DNA from: a virus
Direction: 5' to 3' (one strand)
IMG/VR virus record: IMGVR_UViG_3300010338_000991
DNA: 29,228 bases
Shown here: piece by piece, positions 1 to 29,228 of the stretch
Layout of the letters: every line of letters starts with the position of its first letter
Numbering within the stretch: the first letter of the stretch is position 1
Translations under genes and position numbers: made by a program
The notes under the pieces: model-generated
Databases searched by the model: none
Told to the model about the DNA's origin: nothing
The model's input: only the letters and a program-made list of their open reading frames with translations

Positions 1-127
1 CAGAGATACAATTTAGGATTTCAGACGCTCTTGATCTTTGGATCGATTTAGCCAAATCAACAAACTTTGATGTAAAGGCTGCGGAACAAAAAGTGATACA
101 TTTGCGACCATCAACCGGAGATTATAC
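1..127. repeat. Terminal overlap copy 1: identical to 29102-29228 (circular contig closure or short terminal redundancy)
   Basis: Direct comparison of the two window ends; 127 nt identical, and the reading frame of the tail gene is preserved across the junction. Confidence 0.85.
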
Positions 128-8548: not shown

Positions 8549-8881
8549 TTATTTAGTTAATATTTGTTTTACCATTTGAACCATGTCTATCGGCGTAGAA
8601 AGCGCATCCTTCACGCGATCTACCATCTCATCATATGCGGCGGCTCTTGCGGCGCACTCAGGGCAAAGATCGTCTTCGTCAAGTTCGCCTTCAACAAACT
8701 CTTTCTCGCAATCATCGCAGAAATACGCCTCATAAACATCAGCCGATCCGCATACTGGGCATATGTTTATGTATTCATCTTTCTCCCAGTTTTCCGAGCC
8801 ATTGCCGATGCGTCCAGCACGATACAACACTGTATCCGGATCGTAAAACTGTGATTCGCAGTCACTGCATTTCCATGTCAT
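8549..8881 (-). CDS. Cys-rich zinc-ribbon protein (110 aa)
   Basis: CSDC..CPVC and CDDC..CPEC pairs; GGAGG upstream of the ATG. Confidence 0.45.
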   Translation of the reverse strand: MTWKCSDCESQFYDPDTVLYRAGRIGNGSENWEKDEYINICPVCGSADVYEAYFCDDCEKEFVEGELDEDDLCPECAARAAAYDEMVDRVKDALSTPIDMVQMVKQILTK

Positions 8882-9663
8882 CTTTTCCTCCCTGTTCTGG
8901 CTTTAATGTGGTATGCAATATCGAATTCATTGCAGAAACCAATAACTGTCTCAACTGCGTTATTATAGAAGCTCTGATAATCAGGATAGGTGGATACCAA
9001 CTTGTTATAATGCAACCTGCCAAAGATAATCCTATCAGTGAAGGAAACTTTATCAAGTAATGACACCAAGTCTTGCTTTACTATATTGGGCGTTGGATAT
9101 GGTTCTATACTCACCCACGTTCTACAACCCAGATCATGCAAATTCTTTATGCTTGCCAGGCGGGTAGGGTAATCTGCGGAAAATGGTTCATATTGCTTTC
9201 TGAAGCCTTCATCGAAAGATACCAGTGAAATGCCCCATTCATGCTTTCTATCAAACCTCGATAGTTCCGAAGGCAGTAATCCTTTGGTTAGCGCTGTGCA
9301 CTTGATGCCATAATGATCCAGTAGCTTGATGATCTCGAGGCTCATTTTCGTTACTTCAGGGTATCCACTCATGAATGGGTCTGTGGTAAAGCAAAGATGC
9401 ACGGACTTAATGCTTTTCTGCTTCCTTGGGATTTCTTTCTTCAGCAGATCAAGAGCGTTTTCAACCAGCCTTGGTTTCAGCCAATCGTCGTAGTCTTTTA
9501 TCCTGCCAAATCTGCGAGCCATCATGAAGGCGTAACAGGGATAAGTGCAACCATGAGAACAACCTAACACATGGTTTATTGTGAAGTCTCCGTATTCTAC
9601 ACCTGTTTTATAGAGAAGCTGTTTTCTTAAATTAGTCTTGCTGGTTGTTTCCTTGTCGCTCAT
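8878..9663 (-). CDS. Hypothetical protein with N-terminal Cys cluster (GCSHGCTYPCYA), possibly DUF5131 (phage Gp37/Gp68)-like
   Basis: N-terminus EYGDFTINHVLGCSHGCTYPCYA resembles, from memory, the conserved start of DUF5131 proteins; not a canonical radical-SAM CxxxCxxC. Confidence 0.4.
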   Translation of the reverse strand: MSDKETTSKTNLRKQLLYKTGVEYGDFTINHVLGCSHGCTYPCYAFMMARRFGRIKDYDDWLKPRLVENALDLLKKEIPRKQKSIKSVHLCFTTDPFMSGYPEVTKMSLEIIKLLDHYGIKCTALTKGLLPSELSRFDRKHEWGISLVSFDEGFRKQYEPFSADYPTRLASIKNLHDLGCRTWVSIEPYPTPNIVKQDLVSLLDKVSFTDRIIFGRLHYNKLVSTYPDYQSFYNNAVETVIGFCNEFDIAYHIKARTGRKR

Positions 9664-9869
9664 AGCTCTATCTCCAGTTGTTCAGGATTATTGAATAACT
9701 GGTTTTCATCATTAGAGTCAGGTATCCACAGTAGCTGTTTGCTATAAACACAGCCGTTGTCGCGGTGTATCCAAGAGTATCCGTAGATCGGGCTGTAGTC
9801 GCAGGGCGGCATTAAGGTGTGGCATACGGGACAAAAACGTATAGGTGGGCGTTCTCGTTTGTGTTCCAT
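9660..9869 (-). CDS. Small Cys-rich protein (69 aa)
   Basis: AAAGGAG 6 nt upstream of the ATG; CPVC..PPC motif. Confidence 0.4.
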   Translation of the reverse strand: MEHKRERPPIRFCPVCHTLMPPCDYSPIYGYSWIHRDNGCVYSKQLLWIPDSNDENQLFNNPEQLEIEL

Positions 9870-9875
9870 TGTTTT

Positions 9876-9906
9876 CTCCTTTATTTTATTGTGTTTATCA
9901 TTTCTG
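9876..9906. repeat. Copy 1 of a duplicated 30-bp element (minus-strand sense ATGATAAACACAATAAAATAAAGGAG)
   Basis: Near-identical to 11919-11955; both copies end in an SD sequence directly upstream of a minus-strand start codon. Confidence 0.6.
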
Positions 9907-10005
9907 TCAAGTCCTGAAATGGCGGACTGTTTTTTAGCTTTTGTTGTTTAGCCTAAGCCCCTACATATAATCCCGCTACCGAGCAGGGTTGGCAAAAAGT
10001 GAAAC

Positions 10006-10878
10006 TTACGCAGCATCATATAGTTGGGCAGGTATCTGGTAGTTAATGCCGGCATGCAGGCGACAGTGATTGTAATCGTGGATGGACAATTTGATCAACT
10101 CCCTGGCCAGGCGTTTGCTCTTCAGGACCTTATGGATCAGGTATTCATGCTTCAGGGTATTGAAGAAGCGCTCTATTTTGGCATTGTCATAGCAGTGGTT
10201 TTTCCCCGTGAAGCTTATAGTCAGGCCATGGGACTGGAGTTTTTTCAGATATCGATAGGAACAATACTAGCAGCCATGGTCTGAATGGTGGATGGCTCCT
10301 TTCAGTTCCGGCGTGCTTTTCAAAGCCTTATTAAGGCAATCCAGAGCCCCGTCAGTGCGCAGATTGTTGCTGATGTTGAAGCTGAGTATCTTACGGGAAT
10401 ACATGTCCATCAGAACCGACAGGTAGAGAATGCCTTCGGTGGTGTGGATATAGGTGATGTCGGCGCAGATCGCCTGGTTGGGACGGGTTATAGGTAGTCC
10501 CTTGATCAGGTTTTCAAAGCTGGAGTCATAAATACCGGGGATAGACGTGCGAACCTTCCTGTAACGCCGGGACAGGACCAAGCCGCGATCGCGCAGGATC
10601 CTGTGGAGTTTGTCACGGCCGATCCCAATCCCCAGGTTGGACAACTCATGCCACAGCTTGCGGATGCCGTAAGCAGGATGCGCCGCCCTGATCTTAAGTA
10701 CCTCGTCCACAATCATCTGCTCGTATTCCGCAACCTTCTGGGAGGATGCCAGGGTCTCATAATACCAGGACTTGCTCTTGTTGAGATTCTTGCAGATGGC
10801 GCTCATGGACGCTTTGACAGAAGCCGCTCCAGCGTTCTTCTTTGCTCGGGGGACAGCCTGGAAAGTGAAGTTTTTTTT
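10006..10878 (-). pseudogene. IS3 transposase OrfB (DDE catalytic domain) interrupted by one in-frame TAG at 10267-10269
   Basis: Translation reads ...AIHHSDHGC, then TAG, then a further 86 in-frame codons (YCSYRYLKK...GKNHCYDNAKIERFFNTLK...) up to TAA at 10006. Confidence 0.7.
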
Positions 10879-11218
10879 CAGCCTCGCTGATGTTCTCGTT
10901 GACCACCTCCACATAGCTCTGAAGGCAAATATTGTGCAGGGTGACAGAGGCCAGGGCGGACTCCAACTCCTTGATCCGGTCTTTTTGCTCTTGCAGTATC
11001 GATTTCTCGTCTTTCATCTCAATCCTCACGTATCTTCTTATTACTTGATCCTTTCCGTATTTGCGGAGCCACTTGTAGATCGTGGTTCTGCCATTGATTT
11101 CATAAAGACGGGTTGCCTCTGCTATTGTCAACCTTCCTTTATCAATCTCCTGAACAACTTTCAACTTGAACGCCTCACTGTAGCGAAGCGTTACCTGGGC
11201 GATGGACTGTTTGGCCAT
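10757..11218 (-). CDS. IS3 transposase OrfA (HTH and leucine-zipper part)
   Basis: AAGGAG upstream of ATG 11218; N-terminal HTH-like LTIAEATRLYEINGRTTIYKWLRKY; coiled-coil segment; overlaps OrfB in the -1 frame. Confidence 0.8.
   Translation of the reverse strand: MAKQSIAQVTLRYSEAFKLKVVQEIDKGRLTIAEATRLYEINGRTTIYKWLRKYGKDQVIRRYVRIEMKDEKSILQEQKDRIKELESALASVTLHNICLQSYVEVVNENISEAEKKLHFPGCPPSKEERWSGFCQSVHERHLQESQQEQVLVL
10871..10877 (-). other. Programmed -1 ribosomal frameshift site A_AAA_AAA for OrfAB fusion transposase
   Basis: Minus-strand codons GAA AAA AAA in the OrfA frame; OrfB frame is open in -1 from this point. Confidence 0.5.
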
Positions 11219-11258
11219 TTTTTACTCCTTATTTTAGTCCACCTTTTTCAGGACACCT

Positions 11259-11286
11259 CAGCCAGGCGGGAGATCCCGCCTGGCTG
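11259..11286. repeat. Perfect 12-bp-stem hairpin (CAGCCAGGCGGG agat CCCGCCTGGCTG) abutting the IS end
   Basis: Inverted repeat read directly; 10 nt downstream of the stop of gene 11297-11539; no U-tract on either strand. Confidence 0.5.
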
Positions 11287-11296
11287 GGTAAATGTT

Positions 11297-11539
11297 TCAG
11301 CATCCGCAGGGAGTTCCCCCGCGGTATATTCTACCGCAGGAGTACTCCTCTTCCTCCCACTGACACCCGCAATGGGTGCAGTGCACCACCCTTGTTCCGA
11401 GATAGTAGGTCCCGTTGGGACCCCTATCTTCATCGCAAACGAGGGGGTTCCGATACTCTGCGAGGAGGTATTTCTCCTCGATGAGCCTTGCGGCGAGAAG
11501 ATCGCCGCAAAGATTTGTTAGGGTCATTTGCTTTTTCAT
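11297..11539 (-). CDS. Small Cys-rich protein (80 aa)
   Basis: AAGGAG upstream of the ATG; CTHCGC..C..CGC cysteine pattern. Confidence 0.4.
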   Translation of the reverse strand: MKKQMTLTNLCGDLLAARLIEEKYLLAEYRNPLVCDEDRGPNGTYYLGTRVVHCTHCGCQWEEEEYSCGRIYRGGTPCGC

Positions 11540-14352: not shown

Positions 14353-14820
14353 GTGAAGACAAATAAGCTTAAATTCAATCCCAATAATCCTCGCAAATGT
14401 AGTAAAGACAAGCTTGAAAAACTTATGCGCTCAATCGAATCATTCCCTGAAATGATGAAGTTGCGCCCAATGGTTTACGATCCCGAAACCATGTATGTTT
14501 TAGGCGGGAATCAGCGCCTCGCAGCTATTAGAAAGCTCGGCATGAAAGACATCCCGGATGAGTGGACGATCGCCGCCACAGATCTCACCCCAGAACAGCA
14601 AAAGGAATTTGTTCTGCGAGATAATGTGCAGTTCGGCGATTGGGACTTTGAGATGCTGTCTGCTGAGTTTGGCGAATTTGATCTTGAAGAAATGGGCATG
14701 GATATGCCAGAGATAGAGGCAGAAGAGCCATATGTCCCAAGTGAAACTAAAGAAATTGACACAGATATAGCATTTGATCACAAGTGCCCAAAATGTGGAT
14801 TTGAGTTTAATGAATCTTAG
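14353..14820 (+). CDS. ParB-like nuclease (ParB/Srx) domain protein with C-terminal zinc ribbon
   Basis: GGAGG 5 nt upstream of a GTG start; N-terminal KLKFNPNNPRK...MYVLGGNQRLAAIRKLG resembles the ParBc domain; C-terminal CPKCG. Confidence 0.6.
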   Translation: MKTNKLKFNPNNPRKCSKDKLEKLMRSIESFPEMMKLRPMVYDPETMYVLGGNQRLAAIRKLGMKDIPDEWTIAATDLTPEQQKEFVLRDNVQFGDWDFEMLSAEFGEFDLEEMGMDMPEIEAEEPYVPSETKEIDTDIAFDHKCPKCGFEFNES

Positions 14821-15829
14821 ATATAACATTAAAGACATTGCAGATATAGAAAAGACGCATAAAGCATTTTCTACTTTTGCGTGTGGTGGGGGATCGTCAA
14901 TAGGCTACAAACTGGCAGGGATTGAAGTTATTGGAGCAAATGATATTGATCCTGAAATGAAGTGGCACTATACAAAAAACCTTAACCCATCGCTATATTA
15001 TTTATGCCCAATATCTGACATGATATCAATGGAATTGCCAAACGAGCTTTTTGCCCTTGACATATTAGATGGATCACCTCCATGCTCAACTTTTAGCACA
15101 TCTGGGAACAGAGAAAAGGATTGGGGCAAAAACAAATACTTTAGGGAAGGTCAAGCAAAGCAAGTTCTTTCTGACTTGTTTTTTGACTACATAGACCTTG
15201 TCAAAAGGCTACAGCCAAAAGTATCTATATCAGAAAATGTAACTGGAATTATCAAAGGAAATGCTAAATATTACGCCAAAACAATAGTGCAAAAACTTGA
15301 TGAAGCAGGATATGTTACTCAAGTTTTTCAGATAAACGCAGCAAATTGCGGTGTCCCTCAAATGAGAGAACGCGTGTTTTTTATAAGTAGGCGCAAAGAT
15401 ATAGACAAAAAACCACTTGTATTATCACCAAAAGAAAAAATACTTACTGTATGGGATGCTATACACGACATACAGGATTTGACAGATGATGAGATTAGGG
15501 ACACAGCCCCAAATAACACTGACTTGAAATATTGGAACAAAACCAAGCCAGGATGCAGCTATTCAAGCGTTCACGAAAAAGGCAGCTTTTTTTCTTATTA
15601 TAGGCTAAACAAAGACAAACCAAGCAACACTATCCAAGCAAACCATCAATGTTATACTCACCCATCAGAATGCAGAAACCTAACTTTTAGAGAAGTCAAA
15701 AGACTGTCGTCATTTCCAGATGATTACGAAGCAAAAACAGATAACATCGGGAAGTATATGTGCGGAATGAGTGTGCCTCCATTTATGATGTATCAAGTAG
15801 CAAAAGCAGTAAAAGAGCAGTGGCTATAA
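14810..15829 (+). CDS. DNA (cytosine-5)-methyltransferase (ORF track starts at a TTG at 14774)
   Basis: Motif I FACGGGSSIGYKLAG, catalytic PC motif GSPPCSTFS, ENV motif ISENVTG, QxRxR motif VPQMRERVFF. Confidence 0.85.
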   Translation: MNLRYNIKDIADIEKTHKAFSTFACGGGSSIGYKLAGIEVIGANDIDPEMKWHYTKNLNPSLYYLCPISDMISMELPNELFALDILDGSPPCSTFSTSGNREKDWGKNKYFREGQAKQVLSDLFFDYIDLVKRLQPKVSISENVTGIIKGNAKYYAKTIVQKLDEAGYVTQVFQINAANCGVPQMRERVFFISRRKDIDKKPLVLSPKEKILTVWDAIHDIQDLTDDEIRDTAPNNTDLKYWNKTKPGCSYSSVHEKGSFFSYYRLNKDKPSNTIQANHQCYTHPSECRNLTFREVKRLSSFPDDYEAKTDNIGKYMCGMSVPPFMMYQVAKAVKEQWL

Positions 15830-15865
15830 TGTGTGATGAGACAATATCCGGACAAGGAGTATCGA

Positions 15866-16813
15866 ATGATTAGAACCGCTGAATGTGTAACGCCGAAGCA
15901 TCCAGACAAGCTGTGCGACCGCATAGCTGATGCCATATTGACGGAGGCAATAAAGCAAGATCCAAACGCCAGAACGGCAATAGAAGTTTGTGCCGGTCAT
16001 GGCATTGTGACCGTTCTGGGCGAAATGACAACCACAGCCTTTGTTGATGTTGCTGACATAGCCCGCAGGATTACAGATGGTGAGTGCGGCGTGCAAGTCA
16101 ATATTGTGCGACAGTCACCCGACATAGCGATGGGAGTTGATGCCGGAGGCGCCGGAGATCAAGGCATTATGATCGGATATGCCTGCAACGAAAATGATAA
16201 TTTTATTCCTACGGAATTAAACCTCGCCAGAGATTTGTGCCAATTCATTTATATGCGACACGAAGTTGACGGCAAAACTCAAATCACAATGGACGGCAAT
16301 AAAATATCAACTATTGTCGCAAGCTTTCACAACACAAAGAGCGGAGATCTGAGATCCCTTGTGCACCAGTGGCTTGATGGCAGAAAATGCGAATCGATAA
16401 TGTGTAATCCTGCCGGCGATTGGAAAACCGGCGGGCTTAACGCTGATTCTGGCGTAACGGGAAGGAAACTTGCCATAGACAACTACGGAACCAGAACACC
16501 CATTGGCGGCGGCGCATTTAGCGGAAAAGACCCCACCAAAGTGGATCGCTCTGCCGCGTATATGGCAAGAAAAATTGCTGTCGATATCTTGCGCCAGAAA
16601 AATGCAAAAGAAGTTATCGTTTCGCTTGCTTATGCAATCGGCGTTCCTGATCCGGTAATGACGGAGTGTATTGCCGATGGAAATCATGTTGACATTTCAC
16701 ACTACAGCTTGACACCAAAAGCAATTATCGATGCGCTTGGGCTTCGTGATATTGATTATGAAAAAACAGCAGCGTGGGGGCACTTCGGCATCGGCATGCC
16801 GTGGGACAAATAA
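15866..16813 (+). CDS. metK: S-adenosylmethionine synthetase (MetK), compact form of about 315 aa
   Basis: AAGGAG 6 nt upstream of ATG 15866; motifs KHPDKLCDRIADAILTEA, GAGDQGIMIGYA, DGKTQIT, GGGAFSGKDPTKVDRSAAYMARKIA and C-terminal TAAWGHFG, aligning with bacterial MetK. Confidence 0.85.
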   Translation: MIRTAECVTPKHPDKLCDRIADAILTEAIKQDPNARTAIEVCAGHGIVTVLGEMTTTAFVDVADIARRITDGECGVQVNIVRQSPDIAMGVDAGGAGDQGIMIGYACNENDNFIPTELNLARDLCQFIYMRHEVDGKTQITMDGNKISTIVASFHNTKSGDLRSLVHQWLDGRKCESIMCNPAGDWKTGGLNADSGVTGRKLAIDNYGTRTPIGGGAFSGKDPTKVDRSAAYMARKIAVDILRQKNAKEVIVSLAYAIGVPDPVMTECIADGNHVDISHYSLTPKAIIDALGLRDIDYEKTAAWGHFGIGMPWDK

Positions 16814-24480: not shown

Positions 24481-24674
24481 AAATGAAATCAATCAATGAT
24501 AAGCCCATTTACGGCGTTTACGATGGCAAAGCGTATCTGCTGGACGGCGAGCCAAGAGACTATCCAGAAGCCGTCAAAATGGCATATGCCGATATCTTAA
24601 TTGACGCAGAACCTGCACCGGAAGCAGAGGAAGCAATCGAACCGGATGACAACGAATATGATGGAGGCTACTAA
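24477..24674 (+). CDS. Hypothetical small acidic protein (65 aa)
   Basis: Start overlaps upstream stop (ATGA). Confidence 0.35.
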   Translation: MKMKSINDKPIYGVYDGKAYLLDGEPRDYPEAVKMAYADILIDAEPAPEAEEAIEPDDNEYDGGY

Positions 24675-25666
24675 TGGCTAAAAGATTTGGAAATCAATAC
24701 AGAATCGCTATTGGCAAAGAGACAAGCTACGGTAGTGGCTTCACGAAGACAAGCACAAGCGGAACGCCTGTAGTCGGAAGCGTGGCATGGACTGATCTGC
24801 TTGTCCATTCCGGCGTTATCAATATGACGCCCACAATCAACACTGCTCAAACGACATACAAAAGCGGATTGACCGTAACGCATCCCTGTGAAGAAGTGCA
24901 GACTACCTCGATGGGAACCGTTACCGTTTCTGGCGACGCATCTCTTGCTATCCTCCAAAAATATATTGGCGGGGTGATGGTTGAACGCGCATTTCCACCG
25001 GCTATGGTGTTTCCTGCAGATACAGCAGATATTCCTTCTTTCGTGCTGTATCAGATTTGGGATGATGCCCCCTCTGAAGGGAAATTCAAAGTTAATCGCG
25101 TCAAGGGCGCAAAATTGCAACAGCTTGTCATTACCGGCTCACAGGGTGGACTTATCCAATTTGAGGCTACATTCGAGACGCAGACCGTAGAGCGCGAAGT
25201 TCAGCAAGAAATAACTGGCATTGATCCCGGCAGAATCTGCGGAACAGCGCTTCAGTTTGGTGAGGTAGATGCGAGTTTGGCGATGGGCAATGCGGCTACC
25301 GCATTAGACACATTCTCCATAACATTCACAAACGAGTTTACTGCTGATGCGTCCAAATTTGCCAATAATATGACGCTGTTCAATCCGCATATCATAAAAC
25401 AAGGCGGCGAGATTAGCTACACTTGTAATTACGACAGTGCTGGAGCGGAAATTAACTTAAGCATTATTAGCGACCCAGAGACGATTAATACCGACACGAT
25501 AACTATAATGTCTGGAGTAAATTACTTTCAGGCTATTATTCCCAGTATTGCAACATCGCTTGATGTGCCGGACGTTGAGCGCGATTACTTCAAGCTTAAC
25601 TACACAGGTCGCATTATAAGTGATGGCGTAAGCAATGTGCCAGAAGTTAATATCTCAAACGCATAG
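24674..25666 (+). CDS. Major tail (tube) protein candidate (330 aa)
   Basis: GGAGG upstream; position immediately before the chaperone pair and tape measure. Confidence 0.45.
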   Translation: MAKRFGNQYRIAIGKETSYGSGFTKTSTSGTPVVGSVAWTDLLVHSGVINMTPTINTAQTTYKSGLTVTHPCEEVQTTSMGTVTVSGDASLAILQKYIGGVMVERAFPPAMVFPADTADIPSFVLYQIWDDAPSEGKFKVNRVKGAKLQQLVITGSQGGLIQFEATFETQTVEREVQQEITGIDPGRICGTALQFGEVDASLAMGNAATALDTFSITFTNEFTADASKFANNMTLFNPHIIKQGGEISYTCNYDSAGAEINLSIISDPETINTDTITIMSGVNYFQAIIPSIATSLDVPDVERDYFKLNYTGRIISDGVSNVPEVNISNA

Positions 25667-28811: not shown

Positions 28812-29228
28812 ACTTGTTTACATTGATCACAATGATTACGAGCACACTTTTTATAATGTGCTTAATTTTAGCATTGATCCTATACAAGCTAATACAGACA
28901 ACATTTTTACTTCATCCGGCAGAAAGCTAAGCATAACAATCCCCTATGATGCTTCCGCCATAAACGCATTCCACAATAACGATCAGCCGAATGAAATATA
29001 TCCGGAATATTTAGCAGGGCACTTTAGATTCTTTAAGGATAACGAAGTAATTTTTATTGGCATGGCAAAAGTTACATTTATCGACATTGATGAGCAGAAT
29101 GCAGAGATACAATTTAGGATTTCAGACGCTCTTGATCTTTGGATCGATTTAGCCAAATCAACAAACTTTGATGTAAAGGCTGCGGAACAAAAAGTGATAC
29201 ATTTGCGACCATCAACCGGAGATTATAC
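28801..29228 (+). CDS. Tail protein, 5' part (ATG at 28801 overlapping the tape-measure stop; runs off the window end and continues at 1-1184; full product about 494 aa)
   Basis: Open frame from ATG 28801 with no stop to the window end; the last 127 nt equal bases 1-127 and the frame matches ORF 93-1184; position immediately downstream of the tape measure gene. Confidence 0.5.
   Translation, partial: MSYKLVYIDHNDYEHTFYNVLNFSIDPIQANTDNIFTSSGRKLSITIPYDASAINAFHNNDQPNEIYPEYLAGHFRFFKDNEVIFIGMAKVTFIDIDEQNAEIQFRISDALDLWIDLAKSTNFDVKAAEQKVIHLRPSTGDY
29102..29228. repeat. Terminal overlap copy 2: identical to 1-127
   Basis: Same as above; unique genome length is therefore about 29101 bp. Confidence 0.85.

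Follow-up and report, generated by a model that had tools for sequence, protein, structure and literature searches.

The window, a stretch of 29,228 nucleotides from a virus (IMG/VR record IMGVR_UViG_3300010338_000991), carries on its minus strand a complete insertion sequence (IS) of the IS3 family, whose transposase gene orfB is interrupted by an in-frame TAG codon (Table 1). Both ends of the IS were placed exactly by alignment (BLAST, MAFFT) with 18 other copies. The ends, TGAGGTGTCCTGAAA... and ...TTTCAGGACTTGACA, are imperfect TG...CA inverted repeats that share the part GTCCTGAAA..GG.GGACT, and with the overall length they fit the IS3 family (~1.2–1.55 kb). Pfam places an HTH_28 domain in the upstream ORF, OrfA (E-value 4.9e-9), and HTH_21, rve (2.6e-20) and rve_3 (3.6e-12) in the orfB frame. 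A conceptual OrfAB, made by joining the frames at the A-run as a frameshift would and reading TAG as Gln, matches the NCBIfam model for IS3 family transposases (NF033516) over profile positions 2–368 of 369, with a score of 279 bits where the cutoff is 160. The family model and the rve match identify an IS3-family transposase with an RNase H-like DDE catalytic domain.

The overall plan is that of canonical IS3, IS911 and IS150: an orfA with a helix–turn–helix domain, an orfB with an rve DDE domain, an A-rich slippery motif at the junction between them (here eight A), TG...CA ends and a length of ~1.36 kb. Two further canonical traits are present in other copies only, namely an orfB in the -1 frame (copies with nine A) and target duplications of 3–4 bp (some copies). 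Unlike canonical IS3, IS911 and IS150, the window copy is interrupted by a nonsense codon that parts the second catalytic Asp from the Glu; its run has eight A (A8), with orfB at +1, and it lacks a target duplication.

The termini of the window (1–127 and 29102–29228) form an exact direct overlap of 127 nt; the window is therefore a circularly closed, complete genome of ~29,101 bp. The same genome is permuted differently in other assemblies. Annotation with PHROGs and Pfam describes a compact siphovirus-like phage, with RusA, RecT, a radical SAM protein, a DnaC-like loader, a replication initiator and an HTH protein encoded on the minus strand, and a methyltransferase, SAM synthetase, large terminase, portal, protease, major head protein and tape measure on the plus strand. 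At 14774–16813, a DNA methyltransferase is followed at once, in the same frame, by a full three-domain homologue of S-adenosylmethionine synthetase (MetK); the phage family of this homologue is listed in PHROGs as of unknown function. The radical SAM protein (8878–9663) has weak similarity to DUF5131 and adjoins RecT in the replication/recombination module; relatives at 54–66% identity are widespread in IMG/VR, where 51 loci were found.

Table 1. Features of the IS copy and its left border, in window coordinates
Feature	Position	Strand	Basis or remark
Hairpin downstream of the ORFan gene 11297–11539; 13-bp stem, 100% complementary	11259..11286	-	-31.4 kcal/mol, z = -6.8
Complete IS3-family insertion sequence, 1356 bp	9905..11260	-	BLAST and MAFFT against 18 other copies; ends 5'-TGAGG...TTGACA-3'
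Left terminal inverted repeat, TGAGGTGTCCTGAAAAAGGTGGACT	11236..11260	-	Start point common to all copies
orfA N-terminal part with HTH_28 DNA-binding domain, from ATG at 11218 to the A-run	10879..11218	-	Pfam; gapless alignment with orfA of relatives
Slippery A-run, A8	10871..10878	-	Alignment of copies
Native orfA C-terminal coding stretch, TSLSRLSPEQRRTLERLLSKRP	10803..10870	-	Alignment and three-frame translation; out of frame with the orfA N-terminus here
orfB 5' part, 179 codons, with HTH_21 and the first two catalytic Asp	10270..10806	-	Pfam HTH_21 and rve; alignment
Premature TAG in place of CAG (Gln180, HSDxGxQY motif)	10267..10269	-	Minus-strand reading; alignments
orfB stranded 3' part, 86 codons and TAA, with E212, K219 and the rve_3 region	10006..10266	-	Translation
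Right terminal inverted repeat, ...ACAGTCCGCCATTTCAGGACTTGACA	9905..9930	-	End point common to all copies; flanks diverge right after ...TTGACA

A premature TAG in orfB

Read on the minus strand, orfB runs ...CAC CAT TCA GAC CAT GGC TGC TAG TAT TGT... (HHSDHGC*YC), with the TAG at 10269..10267; the frame then stays open for 86 sense codons (10266..10009; YCSYRYLKKLQSHGLTISFTGKNHCYDNAKIERFFNTLKHEY...QLYDAA) and closes with TAA at 10008..10006. A reading made from the sequence alone had described just this arrangement, and translation of the minus strand bears it out. That sequence-only reading had taken the interval up to 10878: the frame is indeed open that far, but orfB starts with the ATG at 10806..10804, and what lies above it is an upstream extension that reaches the A-run at 10871–10878. 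The alleles it named for the plus strand at 10269, T and C, hold for the coding sense; the plus-strand base is A and its alternative G.

An open stretch of 86 codons has a chance expectation of ~(61/64)^86 = 0.016. Much stronger evidence that the stretch is genuine coding sequence is that its 86 residues match, residue for residue, the C-termini of intact relatives of 266 aa (e.g. P0001, P0126 and P0129). The catalytic residues are encoded at 10461..10459 (D116), 10281..10279 (D176) and 10173..10171 (E212), and together with K219, seven residues after the Glu, they are invariant among 15 aligned homologues. The TAG at codon 180 lies four residues past D176 and 32 before E212, so that the D, D, E and the following Lys are divided by a stop rather than joined in one polypeptide. 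Because the stop falls between the second catalytic Asp and the Glu, the 179-aa product would have an incomplete catalytic triad, and truncated OrfB is not expected to be an active transposase.

A protein search gave more than 1300 homologues of OrfB. They include P0001, which is intact (266 aa), 98% identical and the representative of a 112-member cluster, and P0002, which is 84% identical. Gln occupies the position of the TAG in 15 of 15 aligned homologues, down to 37% identity, and in all 14 intact members of the 90% cluster, or 29 proteins altogether. At the DNA level, the codon is CAG in every one of the 18 other copies (L001–L017 and L069), which are 85–99.6% identical to the window copy in nucleotide sequence. 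Eleven of these (L001–L011) were reached through an exact-protein index and one (L069) came from a genome collection; L012–L017 were obtained by a pattern scan of metagenome contigs in which either C or T was permitted at the site. The ancestral codon is therefore CAG. Among the cluster members listed (cluster n = 112), the sole truncated one is the 179-aa product of the phage.

Five substitutions are private to the window copy relative to all relatives. Four of them (11156, 10543, 10492 and 10330) are synonymous and the fifth is the nonsense change. Over its 3' 520 nt the window IS is 99.6% identical to L013 in nucleotide sequence. With four synonymous changes as the only other private ones, and with none of the 86 residues after the stop differing from intact relatives, the nonsense mutation is very recent, and the alignments reveal no visible decay after the stop arose. 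The earlier proposal that the Gln codon of the HSDxGxQY motif went from CAG to TAG, in a very recent inactivation, is upheld by these comparisons. The case that would have told against it, namely homologues without Gln at this position combined with other disabling lesions, does not arise, as the homologues do have Gln.

The sequence-only reading had also raised the case of a T that is a sequencing error. The two small phage genes that flank the IS occur on 12–13 contigs of ~29 kb each (exact-protein index), from sources that include JGI 3300009712, JGI 3300009654, ENA ERZ27257400 and Logan SRR4236668. Five fetched loci (L093–L097) are 100% identical to the window over 5.4–8.2 kb, including the T, the A8 run and a second run of six A upstream of orfA. 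At least four sources have thus assembled the same phage genome, some of them possibly from related samples, and the truncated product of 179 aa has an entry of its own, P0135, seen on six contigs. Because an identical genome with the T was assembled by at least four sources, the T is not a sequencing error at the level of assemblies; a minority C allele may be present in the population.

An artefact that conceals a true CAG would be in keeping with the nature of the window, a metagenome-style assembly with a 127-nt terminal overlap, and with the proneness of a multi-copy IS to consensus errors and chimeric joins, as the shared or mismatched flanks of IS copies illustrate. It is nevertheless exceedingly improbable: contigs from four different sources and assemblers agree to 100% across the IS and its flanks, T included, the truncated product recurs on the six contigs, and a consensus collapsed from several copies would favour C and not T, given the C of the other copies in these metagenomes.

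Decoding of TAG in the phage

TAG is a terminator in this phage lineage. Several phage genes end in TAG, including those at 93–1184 and 24674–25666, and the homologues of these two genes in related IMG/VR phages end at the same place in TAG, TAA (L071, L084) or TGA (L089). At these gene ends the TAG doubles as part of the Shine–Dalgarno sequence of the next gene. There is no in-frame TAG interruption in the structural genes, and no gene other than orfB is interrupted. The coding density is 92.9% under code 11 and 90.3% when TAG is taken as sense, and it does not rise with TGA or TAA as sense. ARAGORN found no tRNA gene in the complete circular genome, and none was found in 13 related loci.

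These results bear on the proposal that TAG is read as Gln, through genetic code 15 or a suppressor tRNA, and that a full-length transposase is made. The TAG falls exactly on a Gln codon, as reassignment predicts, and such recoding is documented in other phages (bioRxiv 10.1101/2021.08.26.457843; PMC9523058). The resemblance to TAG-to-Gln phages (code 15, crAss-like and others) is limited to this in-frame TAG where homologues have Gln. Unlike code 15 phages, which would show many TAG-interrupted genes, a phage tRNA with anticodon CUA and TAG unused as a terminator, the present phage has just one such TAG, which lies in a passenger gene derived from a cellular genome; it encodes no suppressor tRNA and ends structural genes with TAG. 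With no tRNA gene in the genome or the related loci, no second interrupted gene, a density that falls when TAG is sense, exchange of TAG with TAA and TGA at the same gene ends and no TAG at this codon in any of the 18 other IS copies, reading of the codon as Gln by reassignment is highly unlikely. The sequence-only reading had likewise judged genome-wide recoding of TAG unlikely; the survey of suppressor tRNA genes and in-frame TAG codons that it had suggested agrees with it on both counts, as do the coding density and the swapping of stops at homologous gene ends.

Programmed readthrough, for which a conserved stop would be expected, fares no better, since a stop at orfB codon 180 occurs in 0/18 other DNA copies and 0/29 aligned intact proteins. 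The alternative of readthrough or suppression, which had been left open, is thereby removed: the stop is kept in no relative and the complete phage genome has no suppressor tRNA. Recoding and programmed readthrough are both rejected, and only basal near-cognate leakage is conceivable.

Two other candidates were considered and set aside. The in-frame TAG-ATG junction at 1182–1187 was examined as a second readthrough site and ruled out, as a relative has TAA there and a Shine–Dalgarno sequence, GGAGAGAG, precedes the ATG. Pyrrolysine at the TAG was dismissed because the homologues have CAG and no TAG is conserved; a literature search on pyrrolysine returned nothing relevant.

Basal leakage would take the form of rare decoding of the UAG by a near-cognate tRNA-Gln, giving a very low level of wild-type protein. 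The IS would then be attenuated and not dead, and the attenuation could explain its tolerance by the phage. Near-cognate readthrough of UAG can insert Gln in bacteria as it does in yeast, and bacterial basal readthrough is normally well below 1%. Low-level decoding by tRNA-Gln would restore the wild-type residue here and, with the downstream 86 residues unchanged, would recreate the exact wild-type protein. In yeast, Gln is one of several residues that near-cognate tRNAs insert at UAG (PMC4150775). Against a leaky stop stand the lack of any sign of a readthrough signal in the sequence, the absence of the stop from every other copy and the non-canonical A8 run, which would further lower the output of OrfAB; we consider it very unlikely that the element is attenuated in this way rather than dead.

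The A-run and the insertion site

Of the 16 other copies that cover the whole run at the orfA/orfB junction, 13 have nine A (A9) there; the window, L012 and L017 have eight, a difference that the sequence-only reading had missed. In the A9 copies orfA encodes 137–138 aa and overlaps orfB by 4 nt, with its TGA across the orfB ATG, and orfB follows in the -1 frame, as in canonical IS3 elements (gene calls L001–L011). The window retains the overlap, with the native orfA stretch ending in TGA at 10805..10803 across the ATG of orfB (ATGA). As its run is A8 instead of A9, however, orfA and orfB are not in the canonical -1 relation: relative to the orfA N-terminus, orfB lies at +1 and the native OrfA C-terminus at -1. 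The orfA N-terminus consequently enters the third frame, and an off-frame ORF of 153 aa is called at 10757–11218.

A8 is no lesion peculiar to the window copy, since it is also found in L012 and L017; it is a recurring or inherited variant. L012 is 97.9% identical to the window IS, has CAG at the orfB codon and A8 at the junction, and lies at a different insertion site. A second run, between the orfA Shine–Dalgarno sequence and the ATG (11218–11223), also varies in length, with six A (A6) in the window, L012 and L069 but seven (A7) in the other copies. The occurrence of the A8/A6 haplotype at two insertion sites suggests that elements with it may have kept their mobility, with transcriptional slippage of the IS1447 kind as one possible route.

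IS1447, of the IS1447/IS120 subgroup of the IS3 family in Clostridium thermocellum, has an A9 run where orfA ends; its RNA occurs in versions with 8, 9 and 10 A, and slippage needs no more than seven (PMC6211511). It is thus a precedent for an A8/A9 element that is expressed by transcriptional slippage, and because of it A8 need not by itself disable the phage IS. The two differ in other respects: IS1447 has TA ends, repeats of 48–49 bp and an enrichment in Firmicutes, whereas the phage IS has TG...CA ends, repeats of ~26 bp and relatives labelled as Cloacimonadota. Unlike the classical A6G/A7 heptamer, the run of this IS family is as long as A9, and no frameshift-stimulating RNA structure above the shuffled background was found beside it.

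The two leaks could in principle act together, with rare decoding of UAG by tRNA-Gln and slippage at A8 yielding traces of wild-type OrfAB from an attenuated phage IS. We regard this combination as very unlikely. If it were true, such strong damping of transposase expression could explain how an IS survives in a compact phage genome and travels with it from one Cloacimonadota host to another.

The IS lies between the ORFan gene 11297–11539 and a gene of 69 aa (9660–9869), and all three point the same way. The hairpin that follows the ORFan gene has its 3' foot where the IS begins, with the first two bases of the IS completing the stem. On the left, the flank CTGGC also occurs at the unrelated insertion site of L012. 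The flanks of the window copy (GGC and GAA; 11261–11263 and 9902–9904) do not form the 3–4-bp duplication of the target expected of IS3 elements, which is present in other copies such as L002 (TCT/TCT) and L010 (GACG/GACG). The missing target-site duplication counts against a simple textbook insertion at this site; for IS1447, 2 of 15 copies are without direct repeats (PMC6211511). Co-transfer of host flanking sequence with the IS was considered and ruled out, as the sequence shared with L013 and L012 does not extend past the ends of the IS.

A phage free of the IS was sought through the neighbouring genes. The radical SAM protein led only to relatives of ≤66% identity without synteny, the DnaC-like, 80-aa and 69-aa proteins had no match in IMG/VR, and the 80-aa protein (product of the ORFan gene 11297–11539) had no relative in 5.8 billion proteins. 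No IS-free relative was found by this route.

Origin of the element and implications

The IS is 97–99.6% identical to copies annotated in Candidatus Cloacimonadota. Its only match in a species-representative genome collection (L069) is a 1357-bp contig with 271x coverage in a Candidatus Cloacimonadota MAG, and most of the named proteins in the 90% cluster belong to Candidatus Cloacimonadota, one to Bacteroidales. No match to the IS DNA was found among INPHARED phages or PLSDB plasmids, and a pattern scan of IMG/VR for the IS also gave none. Because copies lie in Cloacimonadota sequences and on a 35-kb cellular contig (L013), the IS was acquired from a cellular genome; the source was most likely the host of the phage.

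On that contig the IS copy adjoins a type III-A CRISPR-Cas locus with a CRISPR-associated primase-polymerase (L013, 1591–13190). A CRISPR array was sought near the IS copy for anti-phage spacers; the 1-kb gap holds only REP-like hairpin repeats. The copies of 85% identity on cellular contigs (L002–L011, L014 and L015) are often flanked by a GTTAGACGTGAC(A/T)GATGGG-like motif, and several of these contigs have one flank in common and the other not. Such flanks suggest that the IS entered a dispersed repeat, that contigs were joined chimerically across it, or both.

The interpretation that we hold to be very probable is that this is a defective IS3 copy of the Cloacimonadota type in a ~29.1-kb phage, with orfB killed by a recent C-to-T nonsense mutation and the element carried as a passenger; it would be a case of ordinary pseudogenisation and not of unusual decoding. 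The sequence comparisons themselves show what the element is, that its codon was CAG, that the T is real, that the phage uses TAG as a stop and that no further decay has followed. An IS3-family element of this type would have transposed between two genes in the early/replication module of the phage. After the insertion, or just before it, a single C-to-T transition changed the CAG of Gln180 in orfB to TAG. Translation would stop 32 residues before the catalytic Glu and leave a copy unable to transpose on its own, a loss of activity that is suggested by the position of the stop relative to the invariant D, D and E. That the 86 downstream codons are still intact would be due only to the short time since the mutation. 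The defective IS would then have become fixed in a clonal phage lineage, probably by hitchhiking, and be carried along as a passenger.

For the biology of decoding the finding is of little import, being a textbook nonsense mutation in the gene of a mobile element, and it closes off a possible false lead, that of a recoded stop codon in the phage. Phages reportedly tolerate IS insertions poorly (PMC3429520), and for this reason an IS documented as fixed in a complete, repeatedly assembled phage genome is uncommon, if not new. The identity of the IS to copies in Candidatus Cloacimonadota provides a host link for a phage that is otherwise unassigned.
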